A DNA stretch of 64,000 bases from contig CATLHA010000001.1 in the NCBI GenBank assembly GCA_949948745.1, positions 17,919 through 81,918 of the forward strand, read 5' to 3'. This document shows positions 31,199 to 64,000 of this stretch, one piece after another. Each line of letters opens with the position of its first letter. The first letter of the stretch is position 1. Source of the stretch: an uncultured Bacillales bacterium. Lineage in GTDB: Bacteria > Bacillota_I > Bacilli_A > RF39 > UBA660. Below the pieces are notes generated by a model. The model was given only the letters and a program-made list of their open reading frames with translations. It had not been told where the DNA came from and did not search any database. The translations under genes were made by a program, and so were the position numbers.

Positions 31199-31227
31199 TT
31201 GACTTGTGTATTAATTACACATATAAT
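31199..31227 (+). promoter_or_regulatory. sigma-A promoter of nrtR with a palindromic operator filling the spacer
   Basis: TTGACT (31199-31204), 17-nt spacer TGTGTATTAATTACACA (16 of 17 positions palindromic), TATAAT (31222-31227). Confidence 0.6.
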
Positions 31228-31244
31228 GAGATTGTGGTGATGAT

Positions 31245-31919
31245 ATGGAAACTAATAATCCAAAATATAAAGGTCAAGGAATTCATGTAATGGCAGCCAT
31301 CTTTACTGTTGATCATGGAATTACAAAAGTTCTTCTAGTAGAAAGACGAAACGAACCATTCTATGGGATGTGGGCTTTGCCTGGAGGTGCTTTATATAAT
31401 GATGAGAGTGTCGAAGATGGAATGAATCGCGAATTATTAGAAAAAACTGGGTTAACTGTTCCAAATTTGAGACTTTGTAATGTGTTTGGTAGAGTTGATC
31501 GTTCTCCTTGTATGCGTATGGTTGGTGTTTCTTATCTAGGAGTAATCGATCGATTTAAAGTTCAATTACTTACATCTACTTTGAAAACTTCAAATGCAGA
31601 TTGGTTTTCTATTGAAGATATCCCACCACTTGCCTATGATCATGAAGAAATACTTAAAGATGCTTTAGAAAAACTTAAGGAGAATATTGTGGAATCGGAT
31701 CTTTTGGAGACTCTATTCCCAAAAGAATTTACTCTTCCTGAAGTACAAAAAGTATATGAATCTATTTTAGGTGTTACTTATGATCGTAGAAATTTCAGAA
31801 AGAAAATGCTTTCTTTAGACTTAATTGAAGATACAAATCAAACAGCGAAATTTGAAGGAAAAAAACCTGCAAAGCTTTATCGTTTTAAGAAAGGTAGAAA
31901 GCAAAAAAGAATCTTGTAA
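31245..31919 (+). CDS. nrtR: NrtR-family Nudix-related transcriptional regulator
   Basis: 224 aa. The N-terminal Nudix fold has the box GGALYNDESVEDGMNRELLEKTGL. The C-terminal winged-helix region has the NrtR-typical FTLPEVQKVYESILG...YDRRNFRKKMLSLDLIE...PAKLYRF. Confidence 0.7.
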   Translation: METNNPKYKGQGIHVMAAIFTVDHGITKVLLVERRNEPFYGMWALPGGALYNDESVEDGMNRELLEKTGLTVPNLRLCNVFGRVDRSPCMRMVGVSYLGVIDRFKVQLLTSTLKTSNADWFSIEDIPPLAYDHEEILKDALEKLKENIVESDLLETLFPKEFTLPEVQKVYESILGVTYDRRNFRKKMLSLDLIEDTNQTAKFEGKKPAKLYRFKKGRKQKRIL

Positions 31920-31929
31920 AGGAGGTATC

Positions 31930-32553
31930 GTGGCAAAATTAATTTATTTCTATAGTGCGATGAAAGGCGGAAAAAGTAGTATTTTAATTCCAATGGCCTA
32001 TAATTTAGAAGAAAACAATAAACGTGTTTTAATTGTGAAACCTGCTTTAGATACTAAGGGTGAAGATTATATTCTTTCAAGAGCAGGAGCGAAAAGGAAA
32101 ATTAATCTTTGGATAGGGAAAGAAGATAGCTTTTTATCTAATCAAAATCTTTCACTCATCTTTGAAACAGATACTATTCTTATTGATGAGGCACAGTTTT
32201 TAACTGAACATCAAGTAGAAGAACTATGGGCAATTTCAAAAAAATTAAATGTTCAAGTTTTAGGCTTTGGACTTAAGACTAATTTTAAAGGAAGACTTTT
32301 TGATGCTAGTAAAAGATTTTTTGAACTAGCAGATGAAGTAAAGGAACTTCCAATTATCCCACTTTGTAAATGTGGAGAACGTGCTATATTTAATGCACGG
32401 TTAGTAGATGGAAAATATGCAATCGATGGGGAAGAATGTGTCATTGAAGGGAGCCAAGAGAAAATAACTTATGAGCCTCTTTGTGGAAAATGCTTTTTAA
32501 AAAATGTAGTTCTGCCTCAGAAAAATATGCAGTATTTAAAAAAACTGAACTAG
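31930..32553 (+). CDS. tdk: thymidine kinase
   Basis: GTG start at 31930 behind AAGGAGG (VAKLIYFYSAMKGGKSS P-loop). LIDEAQFL, plus zinc-ribbon cysteines CKCG...CGKC. The longer ORF-track start would overlap nrtR. Confidence 0.88.
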   Translation: MAKLIYFYSAMKGGKSSILIPMAYNLEENNKRVLIVKPALDTKGEDYILSRAGAKRKINLWIGKEDSFLSNQNLSLIFETDTILIDEAQFLTEHQVEELWAISKKLNVQVLGFGLKTNFKGRLFDASKRFFELADEVKELPIIPLCKCGERAIFNARLVDGKYAIDGEECVIEGSQEKITYEPLCGKCFLKNVVLPQKNMQYLKKLN

Positions 32554-32586
32554 ATGAAGAAATTCATCCATATTTTAATTTCATTT

Positions 32587-32605
32587 AAGTGTATTTTATA
32601 CACTT
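32587..32605. promoter_or_regulatory. 19-bp perfect palindrome AAGTGTATTTTATACACTT, copy 1 (putative NrtR operator)
   Basis: Perfect inverted repeat. It is identical to the copy at 32645-32663, and the shared identity spans 22 nt. The core GTGTAT-N3-ATACAC matches the nrtR promoter palindrome in 11 of 12 positions. Confidence 0.55.
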
Positions 32606-32644
32606 TATGACAATAAAAAATTGTCAATATTTTTAATTAAAAAT

Positions 32645-32663
32645 AAGTGTATTTTATACACTT
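32645..32663. promoter_or_regulatory. 19-bp perfect palindrome AAGTGTATTTTATACACTT, copy 2 (putative NrtR operator)
   Basis: Ends 2 nt before the AGGAGG RBS of the histidine-phosphatase gene. Same sequence as copy 1, 58 bp away. Confidence 0.55.
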
Positions 32664-32674
32664 TAGGAGGAAAG

Positions 32675-33232
32675 ATGATTTATTTTATAAGACATGGATT
32701 AGATGATGAAAGATTTATTGGAGGATGGAGTAATGGTGGCCTTATTTACAAAGGTAGAGAACAAGTAAATGAAGCAATCGAATTTTTAAAGGAAAATCCA
32801 GTTCATTTTAATCAGATATATAGTAGTGATATTGAAAGAGCTAAAGAAACTGCCGAAATGATACAAAAAGAATTTCCAGTTCCAATCTCTTTTGATGAAA
32901 AACTTCGTGAACAAAATAAAGGAGACTTCAATGGTATGTTTGAGATAAAAGCGAAGATAGAAAACCCAGAATTTTTCTCAAATATTAATGAAGATACTAT
33001 TTATCCTAATGGAGAATCTTTAAGAGGTTTCCAGGAAAGAATTCAGCTTCATCTTCCTTATTTTCTTGAAAAAGATAATTCTTTAATTGTAACACATCGT
33101 GGCGTGATTAATGCCCTTTATTATCAATTAGAAAATATTCCAATTAGTATGGATAAAAGTCGATTTGGTGTTACATTTGCTTCCATTCATGAGTATAATC
33201 CAAAAACAAAGAAAATGAAAAAGATTTATTAG
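32675..33232 (+). CDS. histidine phosphatase family protein (phosphoglycerate-mutase-like)
   Basis: Start at the ATG at 32675 (MIYFIRHGLDD) behind AGGAGG. RHG catalytic motif and a downstream VTHRGVI. Confidence 0.75.
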   Translation: MIYFIRHGLDDERFIGGWSNGGLIYKGREQVNEAIEFLKENPVHFNQIYSSDIERAKETAEMIQKEFPVPISFDEKLREQNKGDFNGMFEIKAKIENPEFFSNINEDTIYPNGESLRGFQERIQLHLPYFLEKDNSLIVTHRGVINALYYQLENIPISMDKSRFGVTFASIHEYNPKTKKMKKIY

Positions 33233-33243
33233 GAGGGAAAACC

Positions 33244-33975
33244 ATGTATTACATTAAACAAATAAAAAATGCACTTATTAAATATGAAGTTACCTTTGAT
33301 GAGAAGGAACTTCATGCATTAAAATATAAAATCATTTATGATTGTGGAGAAATAAAACATTTTTCTTATGAAAATACTAGATGCAACCATAATCCCATGA
33401 GTTGGCATATGAAAAATTTTTCTGAGGATTTTGTAAGAGTACAAGAGTATAATGATTTTTACTCATCCCCTGAAAAAGTTTATCATTATTCTTATGACCT
33501 ATATGAGGATACTCCTCTTACTAAGTTAATTGATAGACTGTTAGGAGGTGATACTTCAGTCATTGCACTATTAGAGAATCAACAGCCAATAGAAAATGAA
33601 AATACACCTGAAGCAAATCTTCATGCAAGGGAAGAAGAGCTCCGTGCTAAAATATCAGAATTATTGACAGTTAGTACAACAAATATTAGTACTTGGGAAT
33701 TAGAAAATTTAAAAAATCAACTAGATGAATTTCAAATCAACTATAAACTTAATGAAAATAGAAAATCAGATTCCTCTTATTATCAACAAGTTTTAGAACT
33801 TATTACTATGGAGGAGATTCGTAGAATTGATAGTGAAAAAATTGAAAAAGCAAACACTTTATTAATGGAAGCAGAAAAATTAATTGGTGAAGTTAGGCCA
33901 TTCTTTGAAGATACTGCTAAAGATCAAATTACTGTTACTGGTTATCAAAAAGTAATATCTAAAATATTTAATTAA
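33244..33975 (+). CDS. hypothetical protein
   Basis: 243-aa ORF behind a GGAGGG RBS, packed tightly between the phosphatase and kinase genes. No motif recognised. Confidence 0.55.
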   Translation: MYYIKQIKNALIKYEVTFDEKELHALKYKIIYDCGEIKHFSYENTRCNHNPMSWHMKNFSEDFVRVQEYNDFYSSPEKVYHYSYDLYEDTPLTKLIDRLLGGDTSVIALLENQQPIENENTPEANLHAREEELRAKISELLTVSTTNISTWELENLKNQLDEFQINYKLNENRKSDSSYYQQVLELITMEEIRRIDSEKIEKANTLLMEAEKLIGEVRPFFEDTAKDQITVTGYQKVISKIFN

Positions 33976-33989
33976 AATGGGAGGTTTTT

Positions 33990-35099
33990 ATGATTCGTAA
34001 AATTGTTTTAACTGGAGGTCCTTGTGCTGGAAAGTCCACAGCTTTATCAAAGCTAGAAAGTGAATTTTTAGAAAGAGGTTTTGCTGTATTGGTAGTTCCT
34101 GAAAGTGCTACTGAATTAATTCAAGGTGGTGTAAGACCTTTTGGAAATCAGGCTATCTATGGTGTAGACTTTCAAAAAATTATTCTTGACTATCAATTAA
34201 ATAAGGAAAAATCTTATAATCAGGCTGCTAAGTTTCTAGAAGCAACTGGTAGAGATGTTATTATTCTACACGATCGTGGTGTTATGGACAATAAGGCATA
34301 TTTGGACTTAACGGATTGGAATCATATGTTACACGAAAAATCTCTTTTCGAAACAGATCTAGTAGAACGCTATGATTTGGTTATTCATATGGTTACTGCT
34401 GCCTTAGGAAAAGAGGCAGCCTATACACTCGCAAATAATGGAGCTCGTACAGAAACAAAAGAGGAGGCAATCGAACTTGATGGAAGGACTCTTTCTGTAT
34501 GGTCTTTGCATTCTAATTTAAAAGTTATTGATAATTCTTGTGAGTTTGAAGAAAAGGTAGAAAATGTTCTAAACGAATGTCTAGCTTTAATTGGAGAAAG
34601 AACAAGTATTAGAGAACAAAGAAAATTTGTGGTTGATCCAAATGTTATCAATTTAGACTTATGGAAGGATTGTCGTTCTAAATCCGTTATTGAACAGTTT
34701 TACTTAGATTATCCAAATAATTCATATGAATATAGGATTAGAGACCGTGAGATTGATGGAAACCACTATTATTCCATGACTGTACAAGAAAAATTAGAAG
34801 ATGGACGTTCCATATTAGTTCAAAAAAGAAAACTATCTCAAAAAGAATATCTTCACTTTTTAAAAAATGGACCTATTTCAGGTTCTATTAAGAAAACTAG
34901 ATATACTTGTCTTCAAGGAAAAGAACAAATTCGACTTGATTTGTTTGAAAGTGGATTAACCCTTTTGGAAGTGGAACCTATTAGTAAGAATCATAAAATT
35001 GAAATTCCTAATGGAATCATTGTTTTAGAAGATGTATCTAGAAATAAAAATTATCAAAATAAAAGACTAGCTAAAACGATGGGAAAAATTGCAATTTAA
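33990..35099 (+). CDS. P-loop kinase (AAA_28 / NadR ribosylnicotinamide-kinase-like) fused to a CYTH (triphosphate tunnel metalloenzyme) domain
   Basis: 369 aa. The N-terminal half has LTGGPCAGKST, VVPESATELI and LHDRGVMDNKAYL, an AAA_28-like pattern. The C-terminal half begins EQRKFVV (CYTH ExExK-type start) and continues with YRIRD, KKTRY, LDLFESGL..LEVE and NYQNKRLA. Confidence 0.6.
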   Translation: MIRKIVLTGGPCAGKSTALSKLESEFLERGFAVLVVPESATELIQGGVRPFGNQAIYGVDFQKIILDYQLNKEKSYNQAAKFLEATGRDVIILHDRGVMDNKAYLDLTDWNHMLHEKSLFETDLVERYDLVIHMVTAALGKEAAYTLANNGARTETKEEAIELDGRTLSVWSLHSNLKVIDNSCEFEEKVENVLNECLALIGERTSIREQRKFVVDPNVINLDLWKDCRSKSVIEQFYLDYPNNSYEYRIRDREIDGNHYYSMTVQEKLEDGRSILVQKRKLSQKEYLHFLKNGPISGSIKKTRYTCLQGKEQIRLDLFESGLTLLEVEPISKNHKIEIPNGIIVLEDVSRNKNYQNKRLAKTMGKIAI

Positions 35100-54003: not shown

Positions 54004-54849
54004 TTATCGATTAAATTTTTCTTTAAAATTACAATGTTTACATAACTCTTCGCTTACTTTACGAGATTTAAATCCTTCTATCATATTTTTAGTTCTATCA
54101 TTAGACATAATTTCTTCCATAGTACTTTCATATATATTTCCTAAATTGATGAATCCTTCTCCATCTAGACAACAAGGAATTACTGTTCCATCTACTAATA
54201 TCGCGATTTGGTCTTTTAAAGCATGACAATAACCATAAGGTTCATAATATTCATTTTCTAAGTCAGGCCAAAGGAATTCATTGTCTTTATTCACATAAAT
54301 ATTTTCTTTTATTTTAATATTAGAATTTGTATATAATTTTTCCACAGTTTCTGGGGATAAATGATAGTATGAATTAATTTTTTTCACAGTTTCTGTGGAT
54401 TTTTCATTGAGTATTCCTTTATGAAGTGTCCAAAATCGATATACAATATTCATTTTTTTTAATAATTTATCTACTGATGAGAATATTTCTTCTAAATAAT
54501 CCTCCTTATTATTCTCACTGTGTAAAGATAAATTCATTTGTCTAATACAAGAGCTTTCTAAAAGTATAGACTCTTTTTCTTTTAGTAGTGTTGCATTTGT
54601 TGTAATGGTTACTTTTTTTTGATATTTGGATGCAATATTTAAAATTTCTTTTAAATTTTGGTGAATTAACGGCTCTCCTTTTACGTGTAAATAAATGTAG
54701 TCTGTATAATCATCAATCTTTTTTAAAATTTCCTCAAATTCTTCTGGACTCATCGATTTTCTTATTCTTTTAGTTTGTTTACAAAAGGAACAAGATAAAT
54801 TACAGATATTGGTGATTTCTATGTACACTCTTTTCCATCTTTTTTTCAT
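54004..54849 (-). CDS. radical SAM protein with Cys-rich (SPASM/twitch-like) C-terminus
   Basis: 281 aa. CNLSCSFC (CxxxCxxC) at residues 16-23 and GEPLIH. C-terminal cysteines are C...CC...CKHC. It starts 10 nt after the uvrB stop. Confidence 0.75.
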   Translation of the reverse strand: MKKRWKRVYIEITNICNLSCSFCKQTKRIRKSMSPEEFEEILKKIDDYTDYIYLHVKGEPLIHQNLKEILNIASKYQKKVTITTNATLLKEKESILLESSCIRQMNLSLHSENNKEDYLEEIFSSVDKLLKKMNIVYRFWTLHKGILNEKSTETVKKINSYYHLSPETVEKLYTNSNIKIKENIYVNKDNEFLWPDLENEYYEPYGYCHALKDQIAILVDGTVIPCCLDGEGFINLGNIYESTMEEIMSNDRTKNMIEGFKSRKVSEELCKHCNFKEKFNR

Positions 54850-58632: not shown

Positions 58633-59562
58633 TTACAATCTGGGTCTTTTAGATAATACGTTTTCATATTGACTCATAAAGTCATCTACATCTTCAGAGG
58701 AAGTAGAAATATTCTTTACTAGTCTTTCAAAGTTATTATAAGAAGTTTCTTCGAATAAATCTCTAAAATACCAATCACTTTCCTTCAATCGATTTACTTC
58801 TCTTGATAATTCTATCGTATCAAACAATTCTCTTTGAATCGCATCTACCAATTTTAGAGTAAAATTAATATTATTTTGGATTATTTTTTCATTTAAGGAA
58901 CCATTCGCATATCTAACTTCCATTAATTTTTTCTGATCATAATCTTGTAAATTAATCGCATCTCTTCTTGTAAAATAGCCAACTCCTCGATAATGTCTAA
59001 ATTGATATAAACAATCAGGATCATAGAAATTTACATTATTTATATATTCAATCAAGTATCCACTTAATAGTCTTGCATAGTCAAAGGAAGTTGATCTAGT
59101 TAAATAGTCATCTCCCATATAAAATGATTTTATTTCCATTTCATACAACGCTATAATTTTGGATAACACCTCAAAGAAATATGGTTCATTTTTTATACAA
59201 GAAAGATTCACTCTTATGTGGTTGCTACAAGTGTCATTAATAGTTGCTCCTGCTTTTCTTAATAGGTAACAAATATCTTTTAATTCTATCCATATTTCTT
59301 TTTTATCTGTTAGTATTCTACTAGATAATTCTCCTCCAAAAAATCTTCCTTCTTTTCTTTTGGTTACAGTGCTATCCATATCTAAATACCATTCATCATA
59401 TTTTGTAAATCCAGTACTCTTGTGATGAAGGGCATATCTTACAGGAAGGGGAGATTCTCGAAATAATTTTGAAATATCATCTAAATAGACATTTGTAAAT
59501 TCTAATTCTGTTCCAAACAAATATTTGTCATCTAAACCAATACTATATCTATATTTTGTCAT
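58633..59562 (-). CDS. amidoligase-like (glutamine-synthetase-fold COOH-NH2 ligase family) protein, tentative
   Basis: Start set to the ATG at 59562 (MTKYRYSIGL) behind GAAGGGGAG. The pattern FGTELEF, WYLDMDSTV, GGELSSRIL, CSNHIRVNL resembles the Amidoligase_2 motif order. Called by eye only. Confidence 0.4.
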   Translation of the reverse strand: MTKYRYSIGLDDKYLFGTELEFTNVYLDDISKLFRESPLPVRYALHHKSTGFTKYDEWYLDMDSTVTKRKEGRFFGGELSSRILTDKKEIWIELKDICYLLRKAGATINDTCSNHIRVNLSCIKNEPYFFEVLSKIIALYEMEIKSFYMGDDYLTRSTSFDYARLLSGYLIEYINNVNFYDPDCLYQFRHYRGVGYFTRRDAINLQDYDQKKLMEVRYANGSLNEKIIQNNINFTLKLVDAIQRELFDTIELSREVNRLKESDWYFRDLFEETSYNNFERLVKNISTSSEDVDDFMSQYENVLSKRPRL

Positions 59563-59697
59563 AATCTCCCCTTCTTTTTTTCTTGATATTGTACAATAAG
59601 CCACTTAAATTCGCAACATTTTTATCTTTTATTTTCTTTTGCTCAATAAATAAAACATACATATGTTAAAATAAATATTAGCTGAGGTGGAGTTCTT

Positions 59698-60429
59698 ATG
59701 GACAAATATAAAATTTTAATATTTGATTTAGATGATACATTAATAGATAATTTAGAAAATGTCAGGTATGCATATACTAAAATGATTGAATCTGTTGGAG
59801 AAAAATATTCAGAAGATGGATTTAAAAAGTGGTATGAAATAGATAAAAATTTCTGGAAAGATTGGCAAGATGGCTTGATAAAGTTGCCTGCTCATTTAAA
59901 AAATGAAACAGGTAAAAAAAGTGAAGAATTTTTAAATTGGGTAAGAGCACAAAGAGTATTGATTTATTTTGATAATCAAATAAGTTTAGAAAAAGCAATC
60001 GAATTAAATCATCTTTTTATGAATTCATTGACTGAAATAGTAATTGCCATAGATGGTGCTTATGATACATTAAAATATTTAAAAGAAAAATAATATATCA
60101 TTGTTGCGACGAATGGGCCTAAAGTTGCTACAAAAGATAAACTTTCTAAGATAAAATGTTTGAACTTAGTAAATGAAGTTCTATCGGCTGATATGTTTGG
60201 ATATATGAAACCAAGAACAGAATTTTTTGAAGCAATTCAAAATTTATTAAAAAATTATAATAATGAGGAATATCTAATAATCGGTGATTCACTTAAATCT
60301 GATGTTGGATTTGCGATGAACTGTAAGTTCGATAGTTGCTGGTTTAATAAGAATAATGAAAAATTAGATGAGCCTTATAAACCAACTATAGTTATTCAAA
60401 AATTAGAAGAATTAAAAAATATATTATGA
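59698..60429 (+). pseudogene. HAD-superfamily hydrolase (YjjG-type nucleotidase-like) interrupted by one in-frame TAA
   Basis: Motif I FDLDDTLIDN lies in the first ORF. The second ORF, in the same frame, has VATNGP, MKP and IGDSLKSDV. The junction reads LKEK-TAA-YIIVATNGP, with the TAA at 60091-60093. Confidence 0.7.
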
Positions 60430-60472
60430 TTAAGACATATGAAAAGTACATTCTATTTTTACTTGAATGTAC

Positions 60473-61177
60473 TTATTTTTTTATTTTCTTATTAGATATT
60501 TCCCATCTTACTGTATTTAGTAATGAGTTTAGTGTATAAATAATATACATAAATAATATCGCAAGATTAGCATTACTACTATTATAATTGATAGCCCACA
60601 TGACAATTGATAAAATATTAGAAAAGTTAAATAAATACCAAACTTCTTTTTTTCTTTTTATTAAGCAAATATAGGCTCCTATACTTAATACAGTCGTGGT
60701 TGCATCCAAATATGGCTGTGTATCTTTTAACTTTGTTAAAATCACTCCATATAGGAAAATAGATAATATTATTAGTAATAAAAATATTAATCTTTCCTTT
60801 ATATTGAAAGCTGACACTTTTGCTGTTACAGTTTCTTTGCTTGCCTTAAACCATGCTATAAGTCCTATCACACAACATGGACATGAATAGAAAACATTCA
60901 TCATAAAATCCCCATATAAACCATTGTTATATGCTACTAGCCCATACACAAGAGTATTAATGATACCAAACAGAAAAGCGATAGATAGCCTGCAACCATT
61001 TAGGATAACATATATTACTCCCATTATAGAAGCAATAATTGCTAGTGGGCTATTATTTGTTTTTATAGATGTTATTGTTATTCCAATTGTACATAAAATT
61101 AACCATATAATATCGAATTTTTTTAACGATTTTAATTCTAGTATAAACTTTTTTATCCATTTATTTTTCATAGTCAT
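60473..61177 (-). CDS. pnuC: PnuC-family nucleoside (nicotinamide riboside-type) transporter
   Basis: 234-aa polytopic protein with LYGDFMMNVFY and PYLDATTTVLSIGAYICLIKRKKEVWYLFNFSNI, which match the PnuC family pattern. Confidence 0.8.
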   Translation of the reverse strand: MTMKNKWIKKFILELKSLKKFDIIWLILCTIGITITSIKTNNSPLAIIASIMGVIYVILNGCRLSIAFLFGIINTLVYGLVAYNNGLYGDFMMNVFYSCPCCVIGLIAWFKASKETVTAKVSAFNIKERLIFLLLIILSIFLYGVILTKLKDTQPYLDATTTVLSIGAYICLIKRKKEVWYLFNFSNILSIVMWAINYNSSNANLAILFMYIIYTLNSLLNTVRWEISNKKIKK

Positions 61178-61179
61178 CC

Positions 61180-61965
61180 CTACTCTTTATTGAAATTAGA
61201 ATACTTGTATTTATCATAGATACTTTCTAATTTATTTAAAAATTCTGCTCCATAGAGCTCTTTTAATTTATCAAAATATATTTTTTTAGATTCTAATATA
61301 TCTGAATTCCATTTATGACATAAGCATAATAGTAATTTGTTTTCGTCAAAGTTATCCTTCTTTAAAACAATCCCACCAATTTCAGGAAAAATAGTCTCTG
61401 GAAATAATAATTCTCCATTTAACGATGCTAAAATCATTGGATTAGAAGAAGTGCTGTTTAAATTTTCTTTGTATAGGTCAGGATGTCTGCTTTCAATATT
61501 AATATCATCTAAAATAATGATCGTATTTTTTTGAAGACTGTTTTTTAAACATAGGAAGTCTAAAATTTCTCCTGGTACAAAATGTACTGTATCCATAATT
61601 ACTAAATCAAACATACCAATATCATCTACTACTTCTGGAAGTAATTTTCCTTTTATTAATTTAAATTTTTCTAAATCTAAATATTCTTTTAGCTCCAATA
61701 CTTCCGCCGCAACCTGCGGTTTCCCCTTCTTATAAAAAGCAATGGTTTCCTTATCTATACTTACTAATTCACAATCTAAATTAAGCTTTTTTATGCAATT
61801 TAAATAAACTGCCGTTGATCCACCAGTAGAAACACCTATTTCAAGAATTCTTTTTGGCTTATATTTTTCTATTATGCTACATATCCAAAATAAATTTTCA
61901 TCCGATAATGATTTCTGAGTTTTGTTTTTTAGTTTATTTAAAATATCAAGATAATTATTTTTCAT
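61180..61965 (-). CDS. class I SAM-dependent methyltransferase
   Basis: Motif I ILEIGVSTGGST and an acidic post-motif DLVIMDTVH. Start set to the ATG at 61965 (MKNNYLD), which overlaps the upstream stop by 11 nt. The stop lies 2 nt before the pnuC ATG. Confidence 0.7.
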   Translation of the reverse strand: MKNNYLDILNKLKNKTQKSLSDENLFWICSIIEKYKPKRILEIGVSTGGSTAVYLNCIKKLNLDCELVSIDKETIAFYKKGKPQVAAEVLELKEYLDLEKFKLIKGKLLPEVVDDIGMFDLVIMDTVHFVPGEILDFLCLKNSLQKNTIIILDDINIESRHPDLYKENLNSTSSNPMILASLNGELLFPETIFPEIGGIVLKKDNFDENKLLLCLCHKWNSDILESKKIYFDKLKELYGAEFLNKLESIYDKYKYSNFNKE

Positions 61966-63202
61966 ACTGTTTCGCCTTATATTTTGAGTATACAAATTGT
62001 GTCATTAGATAGTAATTACTTGAAACATATTGATCTAACTCAGAAGAATCCATCTCCACTATTTTTATATGCTCAAATTCCTCTCTATTAGGAGTTCCTA
62101 ACTCTTGGTTTTCTGTCTCACCATAGAAGATATATGCTTTTCCTTTACTATTTCCTACGTTTTGATAGAAAGAGCCTAATATTTTAACATTTTGCTTTTT
62201 TAGATTATATCCTGTTTCTTCTTTTACTTCACGAATCCAGGCATCATATGGATCTTCAAGATAGTCCTTACTTCCTCCTGGAAACTCTGTGTTATGTCTA
62301 TCAATTCCATATCTATACTGATCTACCATAATATATTTATTTGTAGATTTATTATATAAGACCCCTACTACATAATCTTCCTGATCATAAATGTATATTT
62401 TATGAAGTTTTTTCGCAATGGCATCATATTCTTCGTATGATCTAATGTTCCCAATTGGAGAAGAATATTCAACTTTACCCCTTTCCTCTGTTTGATATCG
62501 ATCTGTCCATGATCTATCATAATCCCCATTCACATGTCCATTAAATGAAAATGGTTGTTCAAATTTAGGAAGAGATATATCATGTCTTTTTATTGTAACT
62601 CCCCTATAAACATCGGCTTCTATTTGCCCGAATAGACTTATTTTTTCATCGTACTCTAAAGTATCTAAGAATTCTGATACATCACATAATTCCTTAGGAA
62701 ATCTTGGTGTTGGTTCTAGAGTCGCCAAGCGTAAGTGAAATCTATCCTTATATTGATCGATAAAATTATCTAAATCTTTTTGATTATCAAATCGTCCCTT
62801 GTAGATTAACGCCGATAAAGATATATCTGCGTTATAATCTTTCTGATCTGGTAAATCCTTTTGATTATAGTAAGAAATATTAATACTATCTAGATACTTA
62901 TCACACTCTTTAAGAACTTCTGGTTTTGCATAGTTCGTAGTTATTACTGTCTTGAATCCATATTCTTTGCATGTCTTACATATCCATACAATATCTGGAT
63001 GTAGAAGCGGCTCTCCCCCTAAGATGCATACTTCTTTTATATTATTCTCTTTTGCCTTATTTAATATTTTTAAATAGTTTTCCCTTGTTATATCTTTTCC
63101 AAATTTTCGATTCTCATCAAAACAGAATGGACAACGTCTATTACATCTATTGGTAACCATGATATGAATAAAGTCTGATGTTTTAATTTTTACATTAAAC
63201 AT
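61955..63202 (-). CDS. radical SAM domain fused to a C-terminal Nudix hydrolase domain
   Basis: 415 aa. CNRRCPFC at residues 20-27 with GGEPLLHP. The C-terminal part has MVDQYRYG and the Nudix box GGSKDYLEDPYDAWIREVKEETGY, in the style of ADP-ribose pyrophosphatases. Confidence 0.75.
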   Translation of the reverse strand: MFNVKIKTSDFIHIMVTNRCNRRCPFCFDENRKFGKDITRENYLKILNKAKENNIKEVCILGGEPLLHPDIVWICKTCKEYGFKTVITTNYAKPEVLKECDKYLDSINISYYNQKDLPDQKDYNADISLSALIYKGRFDNQKDLDNFIDQYKDRFHLRLATLEPTPRFPKELCDVSEFLDTLEYDEKISLFGQIEADVYRGVTIKRHDISLPKFEQPFSFNGHVNGDYDRSWTDRYQTEERGKVEYSSPIGNIRSYEEYDAIAKKLHKIYIYDQEDYVVGVLYNKSTNKYIMVDQYRYGIDRHNTEFPGGSKDYLEDPYDAWIREVKEETGYNLKKQNVKILGSFYQNVGNSKGKAYIFYGETENQELGTPNREEFEHIKIVEMDSSELDQYVSSNYYLMTQFVYSKYKAKQYEK

Positions 63203-63244
63203 ATTTTCACCCCTTTATTTTTGTTGTTATTTATTTGTTATTAA

Positions 63245-63273
63245 CATTATATTAATAAGTTCAAAAAAAATCA
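63245..63273 (-). promoter_or_regulatory. sigma-A promoter of the radical SAM-Nudix operon
   Basis: The minus strand reads TTGATT (63268-63273), 17 nt, TATAAT (63245-63250). Confidence 0.5.
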
Positions 63274-63335
63274 ACCACTTTTTTTAATTTTATTAAAATT
63301 TTTTTATGACAATCATTTTAAGGGAAAAAATTTTC

Positions 63336-63778: not shown

Positions 63779-63814
63779 ATTTAGTCAGATTATAATTTGA
63801 CATTAAAACATGTA

Positions 63815-63838
63815 AAAAAGCGAGTTTCCTCGCTTTTT
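63815..63838. terminator. bidirectional intrinsic terminator
   Basis: AAAAAGCGAG, loop TTTC, CTCGCTTTTT. It serves the 128-aa gene on the plus strand and the convergent partial ORF on the minus strand. Confidence 0.7.
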
Positions 63839-64000
63839 TATTTTTCTACTTCTTTATCTAATAAATCAAACAATATTTTATACTCGTCTTTATATATTAC
63901 TAAATCTGCTTGTTTCCTTTGAATCATTTCTTTAAATTTCTGATACGGTACGAAAAGAATTTCAGATATTTCTTCTTTTTGATAAGTTAACTCCTCTATT
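63838..64000 (-). CDS. 3' end of an unidentified gene (runs off the right edge)
   Basis: Hand translation of the minus strand gives ...IEELTYQKEEISEILFVPYQKFKEMIQRKQADLVIYKDEYKILFDLLDKEVEK then a stop, which abuts the terminator. Product not identifiable from 53 residues. Confidence 0.4.
   Translation of the reverse strand, partial: IEELTYQKEEISEILFVPYQKFKEMIQRKQADLVIYKDEYKILFDLLDKEVEK

Follow-up and report, generated by a model that had tools for sequence, protein, structure and literature searches.

Repressors of the NrtR family silence genes for the metabolism of nicotinamide adenine dinucleotide (NAD) and are released from DNA by ADP-ribose (PMC2330246, PMC12735969). Pnu transporters are facilitators for which either direction of transport is possible (PMC5749112), and NAD is an established battleground of phages and bacteria (PMC13464706). 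The subject of this report is a three-gene operon on a 64,000-nucleotide (nt) stretch of DNA, here called the window, from an uncultured Bacillales bacterium (GenBank assembly GCA_949948745.1, contig CATLHA010000001.1, positions 17,919 to 81,918). A predicted PnuC-family transporter is encoded there with a predicted class I methyltransferase and a protein that joins a radical S-adenosylmethionine (SAM) domain to a Nudix domain. The operon is real and uncharacterised. Its three genes form a conserved cassette found at differing chromosomal sites in a narrow clade of uncultured gut Bacilli. The reading preferred here, at slightly less than even confidence, is that the cassette serves a side branch of NAD and ADP-ribose metabolism, in which the radical SAM and Nudix domains act on an NAD-derived nucleotide or a similar nucleoside diphosphate derivative (NDP-X).

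All three genes lie on the minus strand. The first is an open reading frame (ORF) of 415 amino acids (aa; 61955-63202). Its radical SAM half spans residues 1-234 (62501-63202), as delimited by Pfam, NCBIfam, an AlphaFold2 (AF2) model, Foldseek, and stand-alone homologues, and its Nudix half spans residues 235-415 plus the stop codon (61955-62500), as delimited by Pfam NUDIX, Protein Data Bank (PDB) profiles, and Foldseek. The methyltransferase gene (261 aa, 61180-61965, ATG at 61965) and the transporter gene (234 aa, 60473-61177) follow. The fusion TAA (61957-61955) falls inside the methyltransferase start region, an overlap of 11 nt, and only 2 nt separate the methyltransferase TAG (61182-61180) from the pnuC ATG; the original prediction had described this packing, and the ORF list and a reading of the sequence bear it out. 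The actual start of pnuC may be another ATG, located 6 nt deeper in the frame.

The fusion is not two genes merged by a sequencing error. That possibility is ruled out because a search of 5.8 billion clusters found the full-length protein in ~45 clusters from independent assemblies (405-431 aa, 58-84% identity) and because the junction region, residues 160-275, is among its best conserved parts. Beyond these clusters, no match was better than E 1e-8. With both domains also scoring above their Pfam gathering thresholds, the predicted radical SAM-Nudix fusion proves genuine and conserved. Its distribution is narrow. An exhaustive hidden Markov model search of 1.84 billion representatives returned it as one 50%-identity cluster; in all, the full-length profile matched 667 representatives at E <= 1e-10 and 22 at E <= 1e-30. 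Among species-representative genomes it is present in eight GTDB species, with one further remnant. The genomes that carry it are all uncultured, gut Bacilli-type metagenome-assembled genomes (MAGs) from mouse, rabbit, and human. A search of IMG/VR gave no copy, and against GenBank phages the fusion query yielded generic radical SAM matches only. The searchable literature gave no description of a radical SAM-Nudix fusion or of this operon, in keeping with the earlier statement that no characterised fusion of this kind was known. The full-length AF2 model is too poor at residues 165-275 to reveal how the domains pack.

Fusion, methyltransferase, and PnuC genes occur together in 17 of 17 complete loci despite differing flanks, so the proposed three-gene unit holds. 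(Compared loci are given L-numbers and related proteins P-numbers.) Flanking genes elsewhere encode an AraC regulator, a helicase, YdjM, DNA polymerase III alpha, ABC transporters, and pncB. The cassette of the window matches its surroundings in base composition, and none of the other cassette loci has the neighbouring 128-aa ORF, HAD gene, amidoligase gene, or band-7 gene; the HAD remnant and the amidoligase-like gene, earlier grouped with the operon by chemical theme, are thereby set aside. In a relative with 58% identity the order is pnuC, radical SAM-Nudix, methyltransferase, and then a second small radical SAM gene. The product of this extra gene (L005:4757-5470, also in L006 and L007) has 237 aa and the motif CNYQCAFC, and is distantly related to the fused radical SAM domain.

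Several fusion genes appear damaged. A contig of Logan SRR32747397 (L189), 99.93% identical to the window, carries TGA in place of CGA at codon 235 (window 62498-62500). The change falls exactly at the junction of the two domains and leaves a 234-aa radical SAM protein resembling the stand-alone family described below. Reading this TGA as Trp (code 4) was rejected, as the long ORFs of the window are intact under code 11 and TGA terminates two of its 70 ORFs. Because the organism uses code 11, the TGA is a nonsense variant. The fusion gene is frameshifted near residue 141 in L015 (5386-6631) and reduced to its first 47 codons in L018 (1283-1423), which suggests either that some lineages are losing the cassette or that the assemblies contain errors. 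These lesions could be taken to mean that the genes are decaying or juxtaposed by chance and have no joint function, PnuC being an ordinary nicotinamide riboside transporter and the others its passengers. Such an explanation is highly improbable: the trio is kept at 58-84% identity despite altered order and flanks, its frames overlap or abut, the fusion is more strongly conserved than the other two products, and the same radical SAM family recurs elsewhere with NrtR and phosphohydrolases.

The N-terminal half is a member of the radical SAM superfamily by its motifs, its Pfam score, and a partial TIM-barrel model. Radical_SAM (PF04055) matches residues 15-110 (E 5e-14, 53.2 bits against a gathering score of 29.5). 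The CX3CX2C cysteines C20, C24, and C27 (codons at 63122-63145) and the GGEP motif are invariant in the family; CNRRCPFC and GGEPLLHP, like the QYRY element and the Nudix box GGSKDYLEDPYDAWIREVKEETGY of the other half, were located as originally reported. The AF2 model of this half, built from an alignment of 71 family sequences, has a mean predicted local distance difference test (pLDDT) score of 93.4. Its nearest Foldseek match is MoaA (TMq 0.65-0.68, E 2e-9), and viperin with fungal viperin-like enzymes (TMq 0.52-0.64), the cores of SuiB and PqqE, BlsE, AbmM, DesII, and SpeY were also retrieved, all at 15-18% identity. Most enzymes among the best fold matches have nucleotides or nucleotide sugars as substrates. 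Of the curated sequence models, prokaryotic viperin and MoaA likewise score best, each falling far short of its cut-off, and the proximity to nucleotide-acting enzymes is seen in curated scores and Foldseek alike. The 71 family members share no conserved Cys beyond CX3CX2C, and since only the three cluster Cys are invariant, the enzyme has one [4Fe-4S]/SAM site but lacks an auxiliary cluster. Residues K158, K205, R206, and K221 are nearly invariant across the family, and such basic residues would suit a phosphorylated substrate.

Membership in the named families was considered and rejected in each case. For MoaA, scores of 47-52 bits stand against cut-offs of 231-325, and the C-terminal auxiliary-cluster Cys are absent. 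For QueE the score is 28 bits against 260, with a Foldseek TMq of 0.43, and no que genes occur in any neighbourhood examined; the deazapurine option that had been raised for the pathway reduces to generic radical SAM similarity. Among glycyl-radical activases (NrdG/PflA), NrdG2 gives 45 bits against a cut-off of 131, and no glycyl-radical enzyme genes were found in ~25 neighbourhoods examined. For viperin (NF038283) the score is 54.1 bits against 180, and only residues 15-111 are matched. From these profile scores, the radical SAM half is treated as a new small family in the neighbourhood of MoaA and viperin, outside the named families.

Its place near viperin raises the idea of an antiviral or conflict system, in which the radical SAM enzyme would make a chain-terminating or enzyme-poisoning nucleotide analogue during phage attack. 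Prokaryotic viperin models are indeed the best curated matches (NCBIfam, and PADLOC at E 1.9e-18 over 100 of 257 profile positions), the radical SAM family is common to bacteria and large phages, and NAD is contested between the two. Nevertheless, the viperin match falls far short of its cut-off (54 bits against 180) and is limited to the first ~100 residues of a protein that is 55-120 aa shorter than viperins. Genes neighbouring the cassette gave no further PADLOC matches, and the flanks hold housekeeping genes, among them uvrB, pncB, and the gene of DNA polymerase III alpha. Defence systems would also not typically include a vitamin-type transporter or a metabolic repressor that looks constitutive, and this explanation is considered very unlikely.

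The C-terminal half is a member of the Nudix hydrolase superfamily by its complete Nudix box and its match to PF00293 (residues 278-399, E 3e-11, 43.8 bits against a gathering score of 21.1). The box (G310-Y332, 62207-62275) fits the consensus GX5EX7REUXEEXGU at every position, and eight diverse members all share its key residues. PDB profile matches are led by ADP-ribose pyrophosphatases (E 5e-13), and Foldseek retrieved NUDT14, NudF, NudK/YffH, and a Bacillus methanolicus enzyme, both in agreement with the class of ADP-ribose and NDP-sugar pyrophosphatases first proposed. Because 170-200 columns align with NudF-type folds, residues ~235-415 constitute a complete enzyme, including the N-terminal beta domain. 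The closest stand-alone Nudix protein, P0077, is 38% identical and lies on a phage-like contig that has no radical SAM, methyltransferase, or PnuC genes. A split arrangement of radical SAM and Nudix genes was not found beside it, and IMG/VR held no relatives of P0077.

The second gene product is assigned to the Methyltransf_24/CmcI-like class I methyltransferases by its Pfam score (E 1e-7, 32.8 bits against a gathering score of 26.3) and its predicted SAM-binding motif I. The motif E-x-G-x-x-x-G-G-S and residues D71, D120, D125, D153, and D154 are invariant, and the link to CmcI in the PDB is weak (E 1e-3). The third product is assigned by profile to the PnuC family (TIGR01528, PF04973), with 118.5 bits against a curated cut-off of 42.45 for TIGR01528, an E of 5e-36 for the Pfam NMN_transporter model, and a match to the Neisseria mucosa PnuC structure (PDB 4QTN) at E 1e-23 over 207 residues. 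In some cassettes the transporter carries a GT2-like (GT-A) domain of ~275 aa at its C-terminus (L011:5094-6620, L012:9986-11548, L013:6066-7589). The same fusion is frameshifted in L014 (10037-11570), and the domain is a separate gene in L008 (6935-7408) and L009. We know of no described PnuC-GT2 fusion. The domain had no match in the PDB or NCBIfam, and its GT2 match reaches E 1e-5 at best.

The GT2-like domain bears on another explanation, namely that the cassette modifies an NDP-sugar: a DesII-like radical SAM enzyme would act on the sugar, the Nudix domain would trim or recycle the nucleotide, the methyltransferase would O-methylate the sugar, and the GT2-like domain would transfer it. 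Besides the GT2-like domain fused to or following PnuC in L008, L009, and L011-L014, this is suggested by P0088, a sugar-type nucleotidyltransferase fused to a related radical SAM domain, and by a DegT/DnrJ aminotransferase gene two genes from the radical SAM gene in L104. DesII, BlsE, and AbmM are among the fold matches, the Nudix fold suits NudK (GDP-mannose) and NUDT14 (UDP-glucose) equally with ADP-ribose pyrophosphatases, and the methyltransferase is weakly related to both CmcI and rhamnosyl O-methyltransferases. However, the window and at least four further types of cassette lack the GT2-like domain, which in L014 is frameshifted and which is weakly matched without a PDB relative. No conserved sugar-activating or glycan genes adjoin the cassette, and PnuC with NrtR, pncB, or AAA_28 neighbours would be unexpected for glycan synthesis. 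NDP-sugar modification is therefore considered unlikely.

The preferred assignment to NAD and ADP-ribose metabolism draws on the genes that adjoin the cassette in related loci. In L012, L013, and L014, a gene for a 279-aa NrtR paralogue (NF050029, E 1e-50), with a Nudix domain and the NrtR winged helix, is the immediate upstream neighbour and has the same orientation. The upstream neighbour in L016 is pncB, and 3 kb downstream there is an NrtR gene. In L010, pnuC is directly followed by the gene of an AAA_28 protein, 30% identical to the AAA_28 protein of the NrtR island in the window; the ribosylnicotinamide kinase of NadR belongs to the AAA_28 domain family. Together with the NAD cluster described below, these contexts favour the pyridine-nucleoside option among those originally offered.

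The promoter region points the same way. A sigma-70-like promoter, TTGATT-17-TATAAT, was found by consensus scan at 63246-63274 on the minus strand, with its -10 box ~45 nt upstream of the fusion ATG. Matches of this type number 27 where 28.3 are expected from shuffled sequence, and because they are not commoner than in shuffled sequence, the match alone is no evidence. The promoter claimed for the operon is thus present but unremarkable in frequency; what speaks for it is a 24-nt segment around the -10 box, TATTAATATAATGTTAATAACAAA (63234-63257, minus strand), identical in the window, L001, and L010, all of which have different flanks. An operator-like palindrome, TGTTA-N-TAACA, lies in this segment and overlaps the -10 box. 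Related copies, AATGTTAnTAACAA, occur upstream of nrtR in L012-L014, a near-match occurs at the pncB promoter of L016, and another copy lies over the -10 box of the radical SAM operon of L190. Exact matches to ATGTTNNTAACAA were found in 12 of 184 loci compared, 10 of which are cassette loci, and they stand a short way upstream of either the cassette or its nrtR, except in L016, where the match is inside pncB. The weight of the palindrome comes from its recurrence at equivalent promoter positions and from nothing else.

The window has an NrtR island of its own (31205-35099), which encodes NrtR, a thymidine-kinase-fold protein, a His_Phos_1 phosphatase, a 243-aa protein of unassigned function, and the AAA_28 protein. 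Its NrtR gene (31245-31919) has a perfect palindrome, TGTGTATTAATTACACA (31205-31221), that fits the published GT-N7-AC core, and AGTGTA-N5-TACACT occurs twice, at 32588 and 32646. The operator of this NrtR (TGTGTA-N5-TACACA) is not present at the cassette, and the cassette palindrome does not have the GT-N7-AC core. The island, which had been grouped with the cassette as sharing its chemical theme, is for that reason no longer counted with it. Because the cassette of the window has no adjacent NrtR gene and the island operator differs, the regulator is assumed to be a paralogue that acts in trans and whose gene lies elsewhere in the genome.

The radical SAM half also exists on its own. Stand-alone proteins of 230-255 aa match residues 1-233 from end to end, at 36-46% identity (E 1e-58 to 1e-24). 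Some have C-terminal extensions, and the only labels that their sources give, if any, are "radical SAM protein" and "organic radical activating enzyme". Five are on IMG/VR contigs of 5-322 kb. Others lie on contigs of 170-195 kb in long same-strand arrays of small unannotated ORFs, where the recognisable genes include YopX, LAGLIDADG, NAD-dependent DNA ligase, MT-A70, HNH, dNMP kinase, antirepressor, and NADAR. The contigs with these arrays look like large phages. An all-against-all BLAST of stand-alone loci detected no conserved neighbour, and no methyltransferase, PnuC, or Nudix gene was found near these radical SAM genes. Among GenBank phages, neither P0059 nor the cassette methyltransferase had a match, and none carries the radical SAM family. 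A stand-alone gene of Vibrio vulnificus (L019, GCA_032048395.1, 329-kb contig) likewise sits in an array of small unannotated ORFs, perhaps part of a prophage or of the cassette array of an integron, and its product may offer a tractable homologue in a cultured species.

In some places the stand-alone family is surrounded by genes of NAD metabolism. In L021 it lies among a PncA-like gene, NadE, a Nudix gene, three NMNAT genes, and an NAD-kinase-like gene. This dense cluster (L021:1-9940), with the radical SAM gene in its middle, is part of a 938-kb metagenomic contig and further holds a protein kinase and a pyruvate-kinase-like protein; its Nudix is a double one. In L188, the radical SAM gene faces genes for a semiSWEET transporter and a NudC-like Nudix protein (E 2.5e-15 for the NAD+ diphosphatase model), and in the phage-like L030 a NADAR gene adjoins it. 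In L190, a radical SAM gene whose product is 45% identical to the fusion half is followed by genes for an unassigned 191-aa protein, an NrtR 53% identical to the cassette-linked paralogue, and an HD-family hydrolase; a relative of the last, 5DQV, is presumably the nucleotide pyrophosphohydrolase YpgQ. The apparent operon (L190:8340-11868), in which two small ORFs precede the radical SAM gene, comes from an A+T-rich record labelled as an Alphaproteobacteria MAG.

Taken as a branch of NAD and ADP-ribose metabolism, the cassette could work as follows. PnuC would admit nicotinamide riboside or a close riboside, as its family membership suggests. A dedicated NrtR-family repressor would bind the palindrome over the -10 box, to judge from its adjacency in related loci and the shared motif. 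The 5'-deoxyadenosyl radical of the radical SAM half may modify the ribose of an NAD-derived dinucleotide, ADP-ribose, or NDP-X, in keeping with its fold and context. The fused Nudix domain would cleave the pyrophosphate of the substrate or the product, and the CmcI-like methyltransferase might methylate a hydroxyl of the same molecule. A wider proposal, possible but held with somewhat less confidence, is that the ~235-aa family, which large phages share with gut Bacilli and other bacteria, defines a new radical SAM branch of NAD and ADP-ribose metabolism with its own NrtR-type repressor, and that it makes a new modified nucleotide or nucleoside. This product might help to salvage or repair a damaged pyridine nucleotide, or it could be an NAD-based antimetabolite or signal in phage-host conflict.

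That last possibility is close to a further alternative, in which radical SAM enzyme and methyltransferase build a modified nucleoside, the Nudix domain and a phosphatase release it, and PnuC exports it as an antimetabolite or signal. Pnu facilitators can run both ways, the patchy, narrow distribution and variable flanks resemble those of accessory biosynthetic cassettes, and the pairing of radical SAM enzyme and phosphohydrolase recalls OxsB and OxsA of oxetanocin. Yet there is no conserved phosphatase (the HAD gene of the window appears to be a pseudogene and is missing from other loci), no self-resistance gene is evident, and linkage to NAD salvage genes suits uptake more than export. An exported nucleoside is regarded as distinctly unlikely.

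Several observations weigh against the preferred assignment to NAD and ADP-ribose metabolism. The Nudix half scores 36.5 bits against the TIGR00052 (YffH/AdpP) cut-off of 79.55. ADP-ribose pyrophosphatases usually have a signature proline ~15 residues past the Nudix box, in the sequence SPG; here the aligned position is Val349, or Thr in P0045. The nucleotidyltransferase fusion P0088, the GT2-like domain on PnuC, and the DegT gene of L104 are clues to NDP-sugars. The palindrome is A+T-rich, and chance could account for its one occurrence in 64 kb; no NrtR gene adjoins the cassette of the window, whose own NrtR has a different operator. Most stand-alone homologues lie in phage arrays that have no recognisable NAD genes. 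Finally, the nonsense codon 235, the L015 frameshift, and the L018 remnant suggest decay and a dispensable function.

The remaining features of the operon concern its expression. A putative ribosome-binding site, AAAGGGGTG (63208-63216, minus strand), lies ~6 nt before the fusion ATG. An Rfam search of the operon leader found no riboswitch or other RNA, the only match being sraA at E 0.19, beyond the operon. Directly 3' of pnuC, a terminator-like hairpin with a 10-bp stem is followed by UUUU (60444-60474, minus strand; -10.1 kcal/mol, z -3.7); owing to the A+T-rich stem, it escaped the consensus scan. On the plus strand next to it, the HAD hydrolase frame (59698-60429) is broken by TAA at 60091-60093, through either a pseudogene or a sequencing error. 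The gene of an Amidoligase_2 protein (323 aa, 58633-59604, minus strand) is followed by those of a band-7/SPFH protein and an unassigned 168-aa protein, none of which recurs beside other cassettes, and further on a 281-aa radical SAM/SPASM protein unrelated to the cassette is encoded beside uvrB (54004-54849, minus strand). On the other side of the operon, a bidirectional terminator hairpin (63812-63841) lies 3' of a minus-strand gene truncated by the window edge (63812-64000). The last 53 residues of its product (...EEISEILFVPYQKFKEM...) appear by eye to resemble a Nudix/IDI-type C-terminus.

We know of no radical SAM enzyme in NAD salvage, ADP-ribose turnover, or an NrtR regulon, and the searchable literature likewise has none. 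Should NAD or ADP-ribose prove to be the substrate of the radical SAM family, new chemistry would enter a pathway considered fully mapped. A new radical SAM family would be defined, and a function assigned to genes of many large phages, just as the depletion and reconstitution of NAD are being recognised as a main front of the conflict between phages and bacteria. Because the cassette is small, with three genes, a compact enzyme, and a candidate repressor and operator, it is directly testable.

Among known radical SAM enzymes, viperins, which act on the ribose of nucleotides, and their prokaryotic counterparts (pVip) share with the cassette enzyme a single cluster, a similar partial TIM barrel (TMq 0.52-0.64), and the top curated match. 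They differ in length (~290-360 aa against ~235 here), in sequence (15-18% identity), and in score (54 bits against 180). Unlike pVip, the cassette enzyme is fused to a Nudix domain, stands in a pnuC operon, and lies outside a defence island. MoaA, the GTP 3',8-cyclase, is the best structural match (TMq 0.65-0.68) and also acts on a nucleotide; in contrast to MoaA, the radical SAM half has no C-terminal Cys for an auxiliary [4Fe-4S] cluster, is 100 aa shorter, and reaches 47 bits where the cut-off is 284, and no molybdopterin genes lie near the cassette. The OxsB/OxsA pair of oxetanocin A is similar in combining a nucleotide-acting radical SAM enzyme with a nucleotide phosphohydrolase, a role taken here by Nudix and in L190 by the HD protein. 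OxsB, however, is cobalamin-dependent and much larger.

On the side of NAD metabolism, the NadM-Nudix proteins (NMN adenylyltransferase with ADP-ribose pyrophosphatase) provide a parallel, in that an ADP-ribose-type Nudix domain is fused to a pyridine-nucleotide enzyme associated with NrtR regulons. The domain order is the same, but the partner here is a radical SAM domain of unrelated chemistry. The NrtR-regulated pnuC-nadR operons of salvage pathway III and of phage NARP3 likewise combine PnuC with enzymes acting on ribosides and an NrtR-family repressor (PMC2330246, PMC12735969, PMC13464706). Compared with these, the cassette has a candidate operator other than GT-N7-AC, and in place of NadR it encodes the radical SAM-Nudix fusion and the methyltransferase.

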